The notes beneath the pieces are model-generated. The model was not told where the DNA came from. It did not search any database and saw only the letters and a program-made list of their open reading frames with translations. From IMG/VR virus record IMGVR_UViG_2617270939_000001: 12,103 nt of DNA; one strand, given 5' to 3'. A program made the position numbers and the translations under genes. Below are positions 1-12,103 of the stretch, one piece after another (position 1 is the stretch's first letter; each line of letters opens with the position of its first letter). This stretch comes from a virus. Taxonomy: Duplodnaviria > Heunggongvirae > Uroviricota > Caudoviricetes.

Positions 1-486
1 CGTAAGCTGCATCTCGCCGTTGACAGTAAAACACATGAAATCATCTGCGCTGACCTGTCGCTGAACAACGTTACGGACTCAGAGGCCTTCCCCGGGTTAA
101 TCCGGCAGACTCACAGAAAAATCAGGGCAGCATCGGCAGACGGCGCTTACGACACCCGGCTCTGTCACGATGAACTGCGGCGTAAGAAAATCAGCGCGCT
201 TATCCCGCCCCGAAAAGGCGCGGGTTACTGGCCCGGTGAATATGCAGACCGTAACCGTGCTGTTGCGAATCAGCGGCTGACCGGGAGTAATGCGCGGTGG
301 AAATGGACAACAGATTATAACCGTCGCTCGATAGCGGAAACGGCGATGTACCGGGTAAAACAGCTGTTCGGAGGTTCACTGACACTGCGTGACTACGATG
401 GTCAGGTTGCAGAGGCTATGGCCCTGGTACGAGCGCTGAACAAAATGACGAAAGCAGGTATGCCTGAAAGCGTGCGTATTGCCTGA
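1..486 (+). CDS. IS903-group DDE transposase, C-terminal 161 codons (5' partial at window edge)
   Basis: Open frame from base 1 to TGA at 484-486. Not in the ORF track because it has no start inside the window. Protein is typical of IS5/IS903 transposase C-termini. Confidence 0.8.
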   Translation, partial: RKLHLAVDSKTHEIICADLSLNNVTDSEAFPGLIRQTHRKIRAASADGAYDTRLCHDELRRKKISALIPPRKGAGYWPGEYADRNRAVANQRLTGSNARWKWTTDYNRRSIAETAMYRVKQLFGGSLTLRDYDGQVAEAMALVRALNKMTKAGMPESVRIA

Positions 487-5053: not shown

Positions 5054-5287
5054 ATGTCAACGAAGAACAGAACCCGCAGAACAACAACCCGCAACATCCG
5101 CTTTCCTAACCAAATGATTGAACAAATTAACATCGCTCTTGAGCAAAAAGGGTCCGGGAATTTCTCAGCCTGGGTCATTGAAGCCTGCCGCCGGAGACTG
5201 TGCTCAGAAAAAAGAGTTTCTTCTGAAGCAAACAAAGAAAAGAGTGACATTACTGAATTGCTCAGAAAACAGGTCAGACCAGATTGA
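5054..5287 (+). CDS. Small basic protein, 77 aa, predicted ribbon-helix-helix DNA-binding fold (YnfO-like by position)
   Basis: Basic N-terminus (KNRTRRTTTRN), then a beta-strand-like IRFPNQ and two helices (MIEQINIALEQ / FSAWVIEACRRRL), resembling Arc/MetJ/CopG-type RHH proteins. Lies between cos and ydfO, where ynfO sits in K-12 Qin. Confidence 0.6.
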   Translation: MSTKNRTRRTTTRNIRFPNQMIEQINIALEQKGSGNFSAWVIEACRRRLCSEKRVSSEANKEKSDITELLRKQVRPD

Positions 5288-5344
5288 AGCAATTTAGATA
5301 ATCGTGCAGACTACGCCCCCTCATATCACATGGAAGGTTTATCT

Positions 5345-5755
5345 ATGGATCAGGTAGTCATTTTTAAACAAATATTTGATAAAGTTCGAAACGATTTAAA
5401 CTATCAATGGTTTTATTCTGAGCTAAAACGTCACAATGTCTCACATTACATTTACTATTTAGCCACAGAGAATGTTCATATTGTATTAAAAAATGATAAT
5501 ACAGTGTTATTAAAGGGCCTAAAAAACATTGTGTCTGTCAAATTTTCAAAGGATAGGCATCTTATAGAAACGACCTCTAATAAGCTGAAATCCAGAGAGA
5601 TCACATTTCAGGAATACAGAAGAAACCTTGCTAAAGCAGGAGTTTTTCGGTGGGTTACAAATATCCACGAACAAAAAAGATATTACTATACCTTTGATAA
5701 TTCATTACTATTTACTGAAAGCATCCAGAAAACTACACAGATCTTACCACGCTAA
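5345..5755 (+). CDS. ydfO: DUF1398-family prophage protein YdfO-like, 136 aa (the ORF track begins at an upstream ATG, 5330)
   Basis: A GGAAGG Shine-Dalgarno lies 7 nt before ATG 5345. Sequence and length agree with K-12 YdfO as I recall it. Confidence 0.7.
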
Positions 5756-5857
5756 ACCATAACGTCCGGCTTCTCTCACTCCTGAGCCGGACTGCATTGG
5801 TTTAATAAAAACCATCAACAATTGTGATTTAGATATTCGGAACCATTCAAATATAAC

Positions 5858-5880
5858 AAAACCCCGTAAAAACGAGGTTT
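5858..5880. terminator. Candidate bidirectional rho-independent terminator between ydfO (+) and gnsB (-)
   Basis: Imperfect hairpin AAACCcCG-taaaaa-CGaGGTTT with T-rich flanks on both strands. Stem has a mismatch. Confidence 0.35.
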
Positions 5881-5906
5881 ATGGATAAATTTTATTATTG
5901 AATACA

Positions 5907-6080
5907 TCAGATTAAATTAATCTTGACATCATAGCTTTCAAGACCCGTCATTTTTTCCCGTGCGGTAAACTGAATACTGGTAACTTCTTTCCCGGTCTTT
6001 TTCTTAAGTTCAATAATTTTTTTTGTTATATATTCAGAAATATCTGCTTCTGCTTTTGTTTTTAAGTTTTCAATATTCAT
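5907..6080 (-). CDS. gnsB: GnsB, 57 aa; absent from the ORF track because it is under 60 aa
   Basis: Manual reverse-complement translation gives MNIENLKTKAEADISEYITKKIIELKKKTGKEVTSIQFTAREKMTGLESYDVKINLI, stop TGA at 5907-5909. AAGAGGAAATG precedes the start (tandem ATGs at 6083 and 6080). Confidence 0.8.
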   Translation of the reverse strand: MNIENLKTKAEADISEYITKKIIELKKKTGKEVTSIQFTAREKMTGLESYDVKINLI

Positions 6081-6251
6081 CATTTCCTCTTTTAGTCTGT
6101 TATGACTTTCCAGTTACACAGTAAGTCGATTATATGGTGCAAACGTGTAAAAGATAAGATGAAACATCGCAATAATCAACATACGATAGTCTAAATTTTA
6201 CACAAACAGACAAAGAGAATTTTCCTGAATTATCAATGCAATAGCATCAAA

Positions 6252-6482
6252 TCAACTCAAGAGCCTTATTGCTGCTTCCAGAATTTCTTCTGAAGTAACA
6301 TGTCGATCCGCGGCTACATAAATGACTTTATGATCTCCGGTCAGAGATGGAAACCCTGCGGCCATTACAGTAAGGTGTGTTTTTTCGCCATTTGGATATT
6401 CACGCATGATGGTGTTAACTCCAGTCATCGCTGGCACTACCACTGCTGGTTCAGAGTTAAAAAAAACTATGATTTTTTTCAT
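6252..6482 (-). CDS. Small hypothetical protein, 76 aa from MKKIIVFF (track ORF extends to a further upstream ATG at 6524); at the position of the cold-shock-induced ynfN in Qin
   Basis: Clean ORF in the AT-rich cargo block, same strand as the flanking gnsB and cspI. Start is ambiguous and the SD is weak. I do not recognise the sequence with confidence. Confidence 0.5.
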   Translation of the reverse strand: MKKIIVFFNSEPAVVVPAMTGVNTIMREYPNGEKTHLTVMAAGFPSLTGDHKVIYVAADRHVTSEEILEAAIRLLS

Positions 6483-6523
6483 GATGTTACCGTAGTATGT
6501 GAGTATCCATCGAATAGACACCA

Positions 6524-6560
6524 AGCAAAAAAGCTCCCGAAGGAGCCTTCATTTTCACTT
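6524..6560. terminator. Candidate terminator/attenuator hairpin between cspI and the downstream small ORF
   Basis: GCTCC-cgaa-GGAGC, a 5-bp GC stem with a GNRA-like loop, flanked by an A run (6524-6532) and T-rich sequence (6551-6565). Stem is short. Confidence 0.3.
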
Positions 6561-6753
6561 TTTTAAATCCAACGACAGACGGCTGGCATTTAAGTATTGT
6601 GAAATATTATCAAATGTAATCATCATTGATTTACAAAAGATACATTTTGCCCCGAAAGGATTCATGTCAGAAACATCAAAAGATGATGTTCTATACTGGG
6701 AACCATGACAACACGGGCATCTAAAGTGAATATGGTTTGTAATATTGTCTACC

Positions 6754-6966
6754 TCAAAGCGCCACTACATGAACAGCGGCAGGACCTTTAGGTCCGTTCT
6801 CAATACCAAATTCAACTTCCTGATTCTCAGTTAATGTTTTGAAATCGTTGCTCTGAATTGCTGAGAAATGGACAAACACATCTTTGCTGCCATCTTTCGG
6901 CGTGATGAAACCAAAACCTTTTTCAGGGTTAAACCATTTCACTAAACCAGTCATTTTGTTAGACAT
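6754..6966 (-). CDS. cspI: Cold-shock protein CspI (CspA family), 70 aa
   Basis: [70 protein letters not shown] carries RNP1 (KGFGFI) and RNP2 (VFVHF). Confidence 0.9.
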
Positions 6967-7098
6967 AATTATTACCTTTTGAAGAAATTAGCCCTTGGGC
7001 AGAATGGTCCGAAAAAAAATATCAGAGAGAAAAACCAACAAGGAAATCTCAAGAGGTACAAATAATAAAATTATAACAATGACTGCTTCAGATAAATT

Positions 7099-7146
7099 TG
7101 TAACAAACCAGAACACCATTAACGCATGATTAACCACCCATAGCAA
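7099..7146 (-). promoter_or_regulatory. Predicted cspI promoter (-35 TTGCTA 7146-7141, 17-bp spacer, -10 GTTAAT 7123-7118) and cold-box-like 5' UTR start (GGTTTGTTACA, 7109-7099)
   Basis: Same layout as the cspB promoter in this window, and similar to the cspA promoter (TTGCAT/CTTAAT) followed by a GGTTTGACGTACAGAC cold box, as I recall it. Predicted 5' UTR about 144 nt. Confidence 0.45.
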
Positions 7147-7328
7147 GGATTACTTTTGTAAAGAAAAACACAGCAATGAAAGAATAGCTTTATTTATTAA
7201 TAAAACGTGTCATTCTGATTAAGACCTTTTATCTTACCCTTAAGATTTCAGGAATTTTGGCTCATGGAAGAGTCCTTTTTATTTAAATTTTACATTCCGC
7301 GATGTAAATGTTCCGATTTAATATTACC

Positions 7329-8662
<1,334 letters not shown>

Positions 8663-8666
8663 TGGA

Positions 8667-8882
8667 TTATTCTCCTCTCGCAGCCTTACGCCTGTCTTCT
8701 TTAATCTTGAAATAAAGATTTGTCAGATACGTCAGCAGGCCAAAAACCAGGCTACCCAGCACACCGATTGCAGCCCACTGTGACGGAGTTACTTTATCGA
8801 GTAACTGCAATGCCCAGAAACCAGCATTACCCGCCGATGTGCCATAGGCAACACCTGTTGTTAACTTATCCATTGATTTCAT
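8667..8882 (-). CDS. essQ: Class II holin / pinholin, phage 21 S-like, 71 aa, with dual-start motif MKSM
   Basis: [71 protein letters not shown] has two TM segments and is very similar to S21 as I recall it. GGTGAGGAT SD before ATG 8882. The track ORF's 25-codon upstream extension is not supported. Confidence 0.85.
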
Positions 8883-9101
8883 ATCCTCACCCCGATGTAC
8901 ACGGATGGTGCAATATGTTTGAAAAGATCGGAGTCTACGGGGTAGTTTTGACAGCACACGTTGTTCTCAACGGCGCTAAAAAAACATACACATTAAAAAT
9001 GTGGGTAATTATTTTGAAAGAAAGTCATATATAAAATAATAATACGAGAAATGTTTTCATATTTAGTGTACTGTATACGGCCATTTATACAGGAAAAGCC
9101 T

Positions 9102-9272
9102 ATGTCAGAACGTAAAGACTCAAAATCACGCCGTAATTATCTCGTTAAATGTTCCTGCCCAAACTGCACCCAAGAGTCAGAACACAGTTTTTCAAGAGTA
9201 CAGAAAGGTGCCCTTTTGATCTGCCCTCATTGCAACAAAGTATTCCAGACAAATCTTAAAGCTGTAGCCTGA
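9102..9272 (+). CDS. Small zinc-ribbon protein, 56 aa, of the kind described as YnfQ/YmcF-type small proteins next to csp genes
   Basis: AGGAAAA SD before ATG 9102. Two CxxC pairs (CSCPNC … CPHC). Antisense to the late lysis operon. The upstream part of the track ORF (from 9051) lacks an SD. Confidence 0.6.
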   Translation: MSERKDSKSRRNYLVKCSCPNCTQESEHSFSRVQKGALLICPHCNKVFQTNLKAVA

Positions 9273-9327
9273 TTGATTTTATTAGTAACAAGTATTTTTT
9301 ATATTTTAATAATATATTTAAAGCAGA

Positions 9328-9354
9328 TAATAAAAAACCCGCCTGAGCGGGTTT
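9328..9354 (-). terminator. Rho-independent terminator acting on the minus strand (downstream of cspB)
   Basis: Perfect 8-bp stem AAACCCGC-ctga-GCGGGTTT (9335-9354), followed on the minus-strand transcript by a U run (plus-strand A run 9328-9337). Confidence 0.7.
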
Positions 9355-9635
9355 GAGATTGTGGTGCTTTTTGTGGGAGTCATCCACTTACGCACTTTGT
9401 TTTGCGATGCCAGCAGTTAGCTTCTGCTGTGAAACTATTCATGCAGCAAACCTGCACTTCACCACAATGGTTAGCATACTTTTCCTGATTAAGATTTTGC
9501 CAAATATGCTGGCCATTGTTTCATGTATTGGACCTCCTTACTTTTTATTAAAGAGATCCAATATTCACTACTCTGTCCGTATCTCTACTCAGGCATCAGC
9601 CTTCTTCGTTATCGTATACAGACGAGCGATGAATT

Positions 9636-9851
9636 TTAATCAGTAATGATGACATTTGCTGCTGCAGGACCTTTAGCACCACTCTCTATAGAGAAGGTAA
9701 CCTTTTGACCTTCAAATAAGGTTCGATAATTATCATTCTGAATCGCAGAAAAATGCACAAACACATCTTTACTACCATCAACAGGAGAAATAAAGCCGAA
9801 ACCTTTATCAGCGTTAAACCATTTTACTAAACCAGTCATTTTATTTGACAT
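9636..9851 (-). CDS. cspB: Cold-shock protein CspB (CspA family), 71 aa
   Basis: [67 protein letters not shown]… with RNP1 and RNP2 motifs. AAGGAA SD. Confidence 0.9.
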
Positions 9852-9993
9852 TCTACATTCCTTAACTTGAGCCTTTCGGCATAAATGGTTTGCATAACAG
9901 AAACGACTTCGTACTTAATTGGAGAGACTCAAAGAAGGAATAAGTGAATAACACCTGAAATGAGAACTGCTTTAGTAAACTACTTCGTATATC

Positions 9994-10047
9994 GTCTGTT
10001 CTTCAAACCGACGCAGTCATTAACTCATAGTTGAACATATGAAGCAA
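9994..10047 (-). promoter_or_regulatory. Predicted cspB promoter (-35 TTGCTT 10047-10042, 17-bp spacer, -10 GTTAAT 10024-10019) and cold box at the 5' UTR start (CGGTTTGAAGAACAGAC, about 10010-9994)
   Basis: Minus strand reads TTGCTT-n17-GTTAAT-gactgcgt-CGGTTTGAAGAACAGACGA…AAAGCAG, closely paralleling the cspA promoter and cold box as I recall them. Predicted 5' UTR about 159 nt (10010 to 9852). Confidence 0.55.
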
Positions 10048-10149
10048 TGTTTATTTTAGACATCCAGCCACCTTCAACCCTATCAAAAAAGTAGTTTTCT
10101 CCAGGAACGTGTGTATGGTGCACCAGGTTATCAGTATTAAGGAGTTTTT

Positions 10150-10358
10150 CTGTCCCCTAAAATGACAGGAATTGTCAAAAACTTTGACTACAAAAGCAGC
10201 AAAGGTCTTATATTCCCATCCGATGGCGTATCGATGCCCAGCTTCACGTTTCAGCTCTCAATCTTCGAGATGCAGAAGAAATTACCACAGGATTACGCGT
10301 GGAATTTTGCCGGATAAATGGTTCGCATGGACCTTCAACTGCCAATGTTTATCCCGGG
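10150..10358 (+). pseudogene. cspF: cspF-like cold-shock gene remnant: start codon position is CTG, one frameshift, and no stop at the expected end
   Basis: TAAGGAG SD (10138-10144) sits 5 nt before CTG 10150, where ATG is expected. Frame 1 from ATG 10162 gives [22 protein letters not shown], then homology resumes in another frame (…[12 protein letters not shown]…[21 protein letters not shown]) after a one-base loss near 10227. That frame runs on through the terminator. Confidence 0.6.
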
Positions 10359-10395
10359 ATGAGATTCAATATCTCTATTGCCCCATTTAAAGCAC

Positions 10396-10430
10396 AAAAA
10401 CCCGCTTATAAGCGGGTTTTCTACTTTTTT
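10396..10430. terminator. Strong bidirectional rho-independent terminator; candidate tR' of the Q-dependent late transcript
   Basis: Perfect 9-bp stem AAACCCGCT-tata-AGCGGGTTT (10398-10419) with an A run before and a T run after, so U tracts follow the hairpin on both strands. About 110 nt downstream of the Q stop on the minus strand. Confidence 0.75.
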
Positions 10431-10526
10431 CTAAACGTCGGATACACAAAGCCCATCGTTGAGAAAATCTTATCCATGTTTTTTGAAAAATGCAAACATC
10501 ATGTCGCCATCTTCAGCAAAAATCAT

Positions 10527-11279
10527 TTATCTCGTCACCTTCCTCAATTGCGCTTCCGCGTATGCTTCTTCCTGCCAGCACTTTGTTACCAGTTTACCAA
10601 TGACGTCCGCATACCCCTTATACCACTGATAATCGGTCAGGTCTGGTACCAGCTTCTGGACATGACGTCGTGCCAGCGTGGTCGGTAAACGACTAAACCG
10701 GTTTCCATTACAACGCCCACAAATCTTATATACCGGTACGCCATGAAACCGGGTTCTTTTTTCATCCAGAACAATCCCTTTACCCTTACACCCCCTGCAC
10801 GCTGTGCTGACTTCGCCCTTACCATGGCAATGCTGACATAGTTCCTTCACCCATTCTTCCTTGATTACAGATTCCCCGCGTCTGTAGTGTTTCACCACTT
10901 CGCGCAATACATTATAAAATCCCGTACCTGAACAATGCTCACAGCGAGCCTTACTTGCCGCAGACCTGGAGTAATCAGCAAAGGCAAAATTCACAAGGTA
11001 AGGAATAATCTGTAACCGGATTTCTTCACTCAATTTGTTCAATGTCGGGTTATCCAGTGCCATCGCGTAATTTAGCAGGCCTTCAATCGCAAACTGAGGG
11101 TCCTGAACACCAACTTTTGCCAGAAATAAGGCCAACCCAAGTGGTGCTTTCGACTGCACCATCCCCTGCGCTGCCATTACATCCGTAATTGTTAAACAAC
11201 CGGTGCCTGTCGCTGGAGCGTCATCGCTCAATTTTGGAGATTTTGGGGAGTAATATTTTGGTAAGGCTTCAAGGTTCAT
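10527..11279 (-). CDS. quuQ: Late-gene antiterminator Q, 250 aa from [10 protein letters not shown] (the track ORF's 65-codon N-terminal extension overlaps the upstream gene and is rejected)
   Basis: GGAGAA SD before ATG 11279. Four Cys pairs ([30 protein letters not shown]), a zinc-binding pattern. Sequence and length agree with K-12 QuuQ/QuuD-type Q proteins as I recall them. Confidence 0.8.
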
Positions 11280-11292
11280 GCTCGTTCTCCAC

Positions 11293-11836
11293 TTACGCCA
11301 GTACGCCAGTTGCCAGCGCGCGATCGATAAAACGAAATACCAGCTCCAGTTGGGAGCCATACTTCTCTTCAAATGCCACTGTATCCGTATGCAGCTCGTT
11401 GTGATGCTTTCTGCACAAAGGCAACACAAAGAGATCATGTGCTTTTGTTCCCATTCCGCCCTGCCCGTGACCAATCAGATGATGCGGATCGTCGGCTGGC
11501 ATACCGCAGCAAGCACACGGCTGTGTCTTAACCCAACGTGTGTATTTCTCCTTAACCCAGCGGCGACGTTTAGGCAGCTTCATGAAAGATTCCGGAGACT
11601 CTGGATCAACGGTGATGATTACCACCGTCTTTTCCTGTGGTGGTTTTTGTTGCTGGTGGGCGTAAGGCAACGGTGCAAGATTTTTTGTGCGTTGTTTCAA
11701 TATGCTGGTGGCGGTCTGCTCTCCCGGTACGATGTCGCTTTCGCGGTACACCGAGCAGATTTTTTCCGCTGGTAATCCCAGCGAACGACGCGATACAGCC
11801 TCAGGTAGTGCATCCACCTGAATCGCCACGGATAAT
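11293..11836 (-). pseudogene. ydfU: YdfU-like (DUF968) gene, C-terminal part only; N-terminus replaced by an IS3-family insertion
   Basis: C-terminal region carries an HNH-like Cys/His motif (PCACCGMPADDPHHLIGHGQGGMGTKAHDLFVLPLCRKHHNELH) and ends 13 nt before the Q start. Upstream, the same DNA in another frame encodes the end of the transposase, so the first about 40 codons of the track ORF are IS-derived. Exact junction not determined. Confidence 0.55.
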
Positions 11837-12103
11837 CTAGACACTTCCGAGCCGTTGATAATACTGGTTTTCATATTCTGTCGGTGACATCTGTTCGCTA
11901 GAACCATGCCGACGCTTACTGTTATAAAACATTTCGATGTAATCAAAAATATCACTGCGGGCTTCTTCCCGCGTTCCGTAGATCTTTTTCTTTATCCGTT
12001 CACGTTTCAACAACTGGAAAAAACTTTCTGCAACCGCATTATCATGGCAGTTACCGCGACGGCTCATGCTACCCTCCAGGCCGTGTGATTTCAGGAACGA
12101 CTG
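11800..12103 (-). mobile_element. IS3-family insertion sequence, right end and 3' part; approximate inner boundary 11800-11836
   Basis: Transposase 3' end at 11837. The terminal inverted repeat could not be identified because the other end is outside the window. Confidence 0.6.
11837..12103 (-). CDS. IS3-family transposase (OrfB, DDE/rve domain), C-terminal 88 codons; gene continues beyond the right edge
   Basis: Minus-strand frame is open from the window edge to TAG at 11837-11839 (…QSFLKSHGLEGSMSRRGNCHDNAVAESFF…SPTEYENQYYQRLGSV). SRRGNC.DNA is the hallmark around the catalytic Glu of IS3-family transposases. Confidence 0.8.
   Translation of the reverse strand, partial: QSFLKSHGLEGSMSRRGNCHDNAVAESFFQLLKRERIKKKIYGTREEARSDIFDYIEMFYNSKRRHGSSEQMSPTEYENQYYQRLGSV

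Follow-up and report, generated by a model that had tools for sequence, protein, structure and literature searches.

The ydfU-like gene at the right-hand end of the window (the whole stretch of DNA analysed here, 12,103 nt in length) is very probably a non-functional 3' pseudogene of the Qin-prophage gene ydfU, left by an IS-associated deletion in a prophage that was already defective. This account is built on things that are directly seen, namely where ydfU breaks off and where the insertion sequence ends, the absence of a target duplication, the deletion itself, and the domains and fold that the remnant has kept, and taken as a whole it describes ordinary, recent, IS-driven erosion of a prophage. 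The window consists of the right arm of a cryptic, Qin-like prophage of Escherichia coli, with the gene order pinQ, tfaQ, tail fibre, nohA', ynfO, ydfO, gnsB, ynfN, cspI, rzpQ, rrrQ, ydfR', essD, cspB, cspF', ydfT, ydfU'. The features on which the argument turns are the following, in window coordinates:

10527 to 11279, minus strand: ydfT/quuQ, the antiterminator Q gene, intact, with its own Shine-Dalgarno sequence, 13 nt downstream of the ydfU stop
11293 to 11818, minus strand: ydfU 3' remnant, 526 nt made of 174 sense codons, the stop and 1 nt of a split codon
11296 to 11556, minus strand: part of the remnant modelled with confidence by AlphaFold (remnant residues ~88-174), a beta-beta-alpha core and C-terminal helices
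11389 to 11517, minus strand: Cys/His core of the His-Me finger (HNH) motif, C101xxC104, H113, C135-R-K-H138-H139-x3-H143
11557 to 11817, minus strand: predicted linker of low AlphaFold confidence (remnant residues 1-87)
11819 to 11844, no strand assigned: right terminal inverted repeat, TGAATCGCCACGGATAATCTAGACAC, of a 1229-bp IS3-family element, the junction lying at 11818/11819
11837 to 12103, minus strand: 3' end of the IS3-family transposase gene orfB, with rve_2/rve_3 integrase core, running off the window
11293 to 11955, minus strand: mechanical hybrid ORF of 220 codons; in the ydfU frame, which is not that of orfB, no stop occurs over 46 codons of IS sequence

The closest relative of the window is a nearly identical segment of NZ_LR536431.1 (isolate VREC0864), 2443627-2455729 reversed, from which window 5101-12103 differs by one indel and one mismatch, the ydfU' region being 100% identical. 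That the two differ at several bases elsewhere while having the same junction suggests that they are separate sequence records with an identical ydfU'|IS junction. Sequence past the window end at 12103 was read in this sister genome, to whose locus the L001 coordinates used below refer. RefSeq/PGAP annotates there a 'DUF968 domain-containing protein; incomplete; missing N-terminus' beside an 'IS3 family transposase; missing N-terminus', then IS30, IS3 and rspB, and the pseudogene status of ydfU' at the VREC0864 locus is already on record in this annotation. Elsewhere in the window, cspF (10162-10380) has a 1-nt deletion between 10226 and 10227, reading GATGG|CGT against GATGGTCGT in K-12, and a diverged 3' end; PGAP treats the VREC0864 copy as frameshifted. 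At the 5' end of rrrQ (window 7823-8662, at 8344) there is one T fewer than in NZ_LR536431.1, which results in a 279-codon ORF running from the ydfR remnant into the lysozyme gene, and ydfR (DUF1327) is annotated as frameshifted in VREC0864; these changes of frame in rrrQ and ydfR could be real decay or homopolymer sequencing errors. Window 4-99 shows 10 mismatches and 2 indels relative to NZ_LR536431.1, with an IS5-family element adjoining just outside the window, and the divergent first 100 nt may mark a recombination or an assembly boundary.

To locate the breakpoint, 5,426 complete E. coli genomes were searched by megablast with window 11100-12103 as query; intact ydfU alleles matched at 99.9% identity over 719 nt and thousands of matches ended at query position 719, which is window 11818, while only the sister genome VREC0864 runs on. 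With its stop codon at 11293-11295, the remnant corresponds to residues 176-349 of a 349-aa protein, and it differs from the 349-aa allele of strain NRG 857C, taken as the intact reference, by one base and one conservative residue (V/I); its peptides include VDPESPESFMK and WVKTQPCACCGMPADDPHHLIGHGQGGMGTK. Aligned without gaps, the window reads ...GCATCCACC|T and NRG 857C reads ...GCATCCACC|A, divergence starting at 11819, and a gapped placement of the junction by MAFFT was discarded in favour of this reading. The dinucleotide CC that precedes the IS tip is common to three contexts; it was ruled out as IS sequence because the OW1E2 copy of the element has TC in its place and the left end does not mirror it, so that the tip is TGAATCG and the ambiguity of the breakpoint is at most 2 bp. 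CC stands just outside the right inverted-repeat tip in three of the four IS copies examined (window 11817-11818 and the flanks in loci L003 and L004), and this recurrent flank may reflect target preference or a shared ancestry of the junctions.

It is worth setting these coordinates against the sequence-only reading, which had seen here a ydfU-like gene cut at an IS3-family element, with its C-terminal 150-180 codons kept upstream of Q. Both statements are confirmed (174 codons, with ydfT 13 nt downstream), and the alignment with full-length ydfU that it had proposed did define the breakpoint. The IS terminal repeat that it expected near 11800-11836 was found, starting at 11819; upstream of 11836, in the ydfU frame, ydfU does not continue and the sequence is that of the IS. 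As to the span it had given, 11293-11836, the left end stands and the right end is 18 bp too far, 11819-11836 being IS terminal repeat. What is left is not an intact, expressible ydfU, as residues 1-175, the native start, the ribosome-binding site and the upstream operon are all absent. No inactivating mutations have accumulated within the remnant, and since its sequence is essentially unmutated the truncation would appear to be recent; an unmutated remnant is what a recent event leads us to expect, and it is also compatible with retention. The junction itself, found in only one of the 5,426 complete genomes, for that reason shows no sign of selection to maintain it.

The two inverted repeats of the adjoining element, TGAATCGCCACGG...CCGTGGCGATTCA, are of the TG...CA type and match at 20 of their 26 positions, the 13 tip positions perfectly, the left repeat lying at L001 10408-10433; the TAG stop codon of orfB (11839-11837) sits within the right one. 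Matches to rve_2 and rve_3 and to positions 293-369 of NF033516, together with the terminal repeats and the frameshift in the OW1E2 copy, place the element in the IS3 family. That intact copy, which serves as reference (strain OW1E2, L007 4442-5670), is 1229 bp long, 98% identical and annotated with an orfA-orfB programmed frameshift. In PGAP and PLSDB annotations the element is named 'IS3 family' only; from its length of 1229 bp and its spread on Enterobacterales plasmids, it would seem to resemble ISEhe3. In VREC0864 its ends lie at L001 6720 and 10433, and IS positions 1-917 and 916-1229 are kept apart by 2.48 kb made up of IS30 and IS3. IS30 cuts the element at IS position 917, orfB being a pseudogene in this genome, and the 2-bp overlap (IS positions 916-917) would be consistent with a target duplication made by IS30. 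L001 6720-10433 is a nest of three levels, the IS3-family element containing IS30, with a complete IS3 near the right end of the latter. The IS3-family::IS30 junction is also found elsewhere in E. coli, in strain 2452 (near a porin gene and hsdR) and in EC102 (near a flagellin island), and its presence at unrelated loci implies that the composite has spread or recombined as a unit.

That an IS-interrupted gene results from simple insertion, its 5' half lying intact across the element, is the default expectation, and this was the wording of the sequence-only reading, of which the abutting IS stands and the simple insertion does not. We give this model almost no credence, and in the sister genome VREC0864 it is refuted. 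The triplets that flank the IS are ACC and AGG, and they differ, leaving none of the target-site duplication that a simple insertion makes; this would be consistent with a deletion or a rearrangement after insertion, and does not affect membership of the IS3 family. In VREC0864, 258 bp of unrelated DNA come directly after L001 10433, then rspB-adjoining DNA resumes, and the 5' half of ydfU, rem, hokD and relBE were not found beyond this other IS end. On the K-12 map, the distance from mid-ydfU to rspB-proximal sequence is ~9 kb, an interval that holds the 5' half of ydfU, a 279-bp ORF, rem, hokD, relBE, ydfV, flxA, dicC, dicA and dicF, as well as ydfABC, dicB, ydfD and the intQ remnant. Some 9 kb of prophage, including the early promoter region, is thus gone. 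A different way to do without a deletion is to suppose that the junction is an assembly artefact, created by collapse or mis-joining at repeated copies of the IS. The region is after all a nest of three repeated elements, of which many copies exist in the genome (13 places in the record), and the single-base frameshifts of genes close by could be errors of sequencing. Against this, what lies across the nest is rspB, which naturally borders the left end of Qin in the chromosome, and mis-assembly is unlikely as the join is local and collinear, as expected of a deletion; the window and NZ_LR536431.1 share the junction despite their base differences elsewhere, and a comparable IS-bounded deletion exists in OW1E2. 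An artefact is, on balance, highly improbable.

The 258 bp of AT-rich DNA between the left end of the IS and rspB (L001 10434-10691) take in the greater part of an ORF of 105 aa, for which the annotation is hypothetical protein, and gave a megablast match in no other of the 5,426 complete E. coli genomes. In OW1E2 the intact copy of the IS (L007 4442-5670) stands upstream of ydfU, which is intact there, and adjoins an rspA that is truncated; its flanks, CTC and CTT, again form no matching target duplication, and ydfU is followed downstream by a Q gene of another antiterminator family. This is an independent IS-associated erosion of the same prophage arm with a different breakpoint.

We can picture the deletion that we prefer as follows. 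An IS3-family element abuts codon 176 of ydfU, the prophage DNA upstream having been deleted. The ~9 kb lost included the early promoter region, from which ydfU and the Q gene are normally transcribed, and in its place there are the IS with its nested IS30 and IS3, 258 bp of DNA not met in the other genomes, then rspB. The cut falls at the boundary between the N-terminal domain and the linker, so that the remnant still encodes the linker and a complete predicted HNH module.

The remnant covers positions 17-171 of the 171 in the profile of Pfam DUF968 (PF06147), at 229.7 bits against a cutoff of 27.8 bits (E = 2.9e-68); for the intact allele, in which the domain takes up residues 160-346 of YdfU, the match extends over positions 1-171 and reaches 255 bits. 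The HNH-like Cys/His motif said to have been kept is present, far beyond chance. In remnant numbering its residues are C101-A-C103-C104, H112-H113, H117, H127, C135, H138-H139 and H143, which supply the zinc-binding CxxC...CxxH pattern and the catalytic histidines of the His-Me finger/HNH superfamily. In an alignment of 39 sequences most of the core Cys/His are invariant, C101, H138 and H139 being conserved in at least 90%, and at all family-invariant columns the remnant retains the residues. When the 174-residue remnant was modelled by AlphaFold with the help of 38 homologues, confidence was low over residues 1-87 and the pLDDT about 90 over roughly 90-115 and 130-170, the loop 118-124 being of low confidence; the predicted structure has the beta-beta-alpha-metal fold. 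By this predicted fold the remnant belongs to the His-Me finger superfamily, with a complete core and a putative nuclease activity. Within the superfamily its placement is less sharp: with HNHc_6 (PF16784) the window ORF scores 26.6 bits, exactly the cutoff of 26.6, and intact YdfU 25.6, over profile positions 123-184 of 204 only, while with RecA_dep_nuc (PF16786) the score is 19.0 bits against a cutoff of 26.9. As the remnant fails the Pfam threshold of the Ref family and sits on that of HNHc_6, we would file it in neither. An NCBIfam scan of intact and truncated YdfU matched no family, and searches of PDB sequences with phmmer and with the 39-sequence profile gave no meaningful match, kinship with solved HNH structures being visible only by fold.

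A model of the full-length homologue P0113 has a folded N-terminal domain (~30-165), a disordered linker (~169-221), then the HNH core. The N-terminal domain contains a beta-beta-alpha element and a conserved pattern of its own, C...H...CWHCDN, and a structure search found no confident structural relative for it. The breakpoint falls in the conserved WW..ADALPE segment at the end of this domain, and it is because the cut is at the boundary between domain and linker that the remnant amounts to linker plus nuclease core. In databases the C-terminal module of DUF968 is joined to varied N-termini. Its fusions involve RusA, a Dam-type methyltransferase, HTH/GntR and PF06254 (proteins P0019/P0049, P0059/P0076, P0063/P0077 and P0008), and some of them may be true mosaics, others frameshift or gene-calling artefacts. 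In a prophage of Citrobacter braakii (L008 3001-3513), a stand-alone DUF968 gene of 170 aa lies directly upstream of a Q antiterminator gene, in an early operon that looks intact, with cI-like, cro-like, cII-like and antirepressor genes; the protein begins only ~14 residues before the first residue of the remnant. The varied N-termini and this natural DUF968-only gene make it plausible that a fragment of the size of the remnant would be a self-sufficient folding unit.

Such a fragment could fold and act if it were made, and it is natural to ask whether the remnant might be expressed, as a truncated or IS-hybrid protein, yielding a free Ref/Gp16-like HNH domain that acts on host or phage DNA. 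The sequence-only reading had envisaged this, with an internal start and an outward-reading IS promoter, and neither has fared well. In favour of expression, the His-Me finger core is complete with its invariant residues all kept, the natural Citrobacter gene and the module's varied N-termini point the same way, and the ydfU frame is open into the IS, where 46 stop-free codons are unremarkable (roughly 0.1 by chance). Starts that could serve are GTG 11625, ATG 11583 or, within the IS, ATG 11874. The in-frame starts that keep the nuclease core are, in all, GTG 11955, ATG 11907, ATG 11874, GTG 11829, GTG 11817, GTG 11625 and ATG 11583. Their pairing with the anti-Shine-Dalgarno sequence is -4.3 kcal/mol or weaker, against -6.4 for ydfT, and no convincing Shine-Dalgarno was found at any of them (GTG 11955, ATG 11907 and ATG 11874 included). 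Transcription would have to come from a weak outward promoter at the IS end or from read-through out of the nested elements. Outward -35 elements are known at the right ends of IS3-family elements, and an antisense promoter has been described in IS30, which is oriented antisense to ydfU'. Weak outward promoter-like hexamers do occur within 70 bp of this IS end, with TTATCA-16-TAGATT at window 11861-11834; yet a permissive scan of 1.55 kb returned 7 weak sites against 6.4 +/- 2.8 in dinucleotide shuffles, which is the level of chance, and a terminator-like hairpin lies upstream of ydfU' (window 11972-11957). A consensus scan of the minus strand over L001 5300-10500 found three sites only, the native promoter of the IS, in the left repeat 3.6 kb upstream and behind IS3 and the antisense-oriented IS30, and two others inside IS3, with no consensus promoter on that strand from IS30 to ydfU'.

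To this must be added, by analogy, that truncated Gp16 has no RecA binding, which its effect required (PMC12817073), and that the junction is confined to a single complete genome. Expression of the remnant is on these grounds unlikely. A stronger form of the idea, in which a chimeric or internally initiated gene for a free linker-plus-HNH protein has arisen at the IS-ydfU' junction, with low-level transcription from the IS end or by read-through into ydfU'-ydfT, strikes us as quite improbable; were it true, the strain would gain a nuclease activity that is new to it and that could be toxic or alter recombination. Considering that promoter, start codon and ribosome-binding site have been lost, we infer that the remnant is silent, and expression of a free nuclease domain finds no support in the sequence.

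Understood as a silent pseudogene left by deletion, the locus is one more case of insertion sequences eroding a cryptic prophage, and matters little. The cut at a domain boundary left a predicted nuclease module intact, and this lineage is without the Qin early region (relBE, hokD, dicABF). The locus would bear on the creation of new genes by IS junctions only in the event that ydfU' is expressed.

We may finally place the remnant among known systems. YdfU of the K-12 Qin prophage is the same gene, at the same position directly upstream of ydfT/quuQ, with which its co-transcription is the normal arrangement; unlike intact YdfU, the remnant has no folded N-terminal domain (residues 1-175), no start or ribosome-binding site and none of the prophage DNA upstream. 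The HNH-type classification of DUF968/YdfU is already published, DUF968 and DUF1364 forming 'group 7' of the His-Me finger nucleases with YdfU named explicitly (Jablonska et al. 2017, PMC5714182). A DUF1364 member, YbcO of DLP12 (PDB 3G27), is in contrast a stand-alone intact gene of 96 aa and a separate Pfam family. The predicted core of the remnant is structurally closest to P1 Ref (PDB 3PLW, PF16786), a RecA-dependent HNH endonuclease, a resemblance in structure only: Ref is an expressed phage gene, and the remnant lies below the RecA_dep_nuc threshold. The S. aureus phage PhiNM1 encodes Gp16, an HNHc_6-type, RecA-dependent HNH nickase in which zinc-finger and catalytic residues C145xxC148, H157 and C181-R-E-H184-H185...H189 were mutagenised (PMC12817073). 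Gp16 and the remnant share a layout, CxxC, a histidine 9 residues on, then C-R-x-H-H-x3-H, this being a comparison of patterns and not an alignment to the Gp16 sequence; Gp16 differs in coming from a phage of Gram-positive bacteria and in its NinB/Orf-like N-terminal domain, to which that of YdfU is unrelated by Pfam. Truncations of Gp16 at the N-terminus and at the C-terminus each lose the RecA binding needed for its effect (PMC12817073), and this analogy argues that a truncated YdfU would not be fully functional. In IS-mediated adjacent deletions, too, a truncated gene adjoins the end of an IS, a target duplication is missing and insertion sequences are nested, and in OW1E2 the same IS borders another deletion of this prophage arm. 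Compared with other IS-driven erosion there is nothing unusual here; the particular breakpoint is seen in only one complete genome of 5,426.
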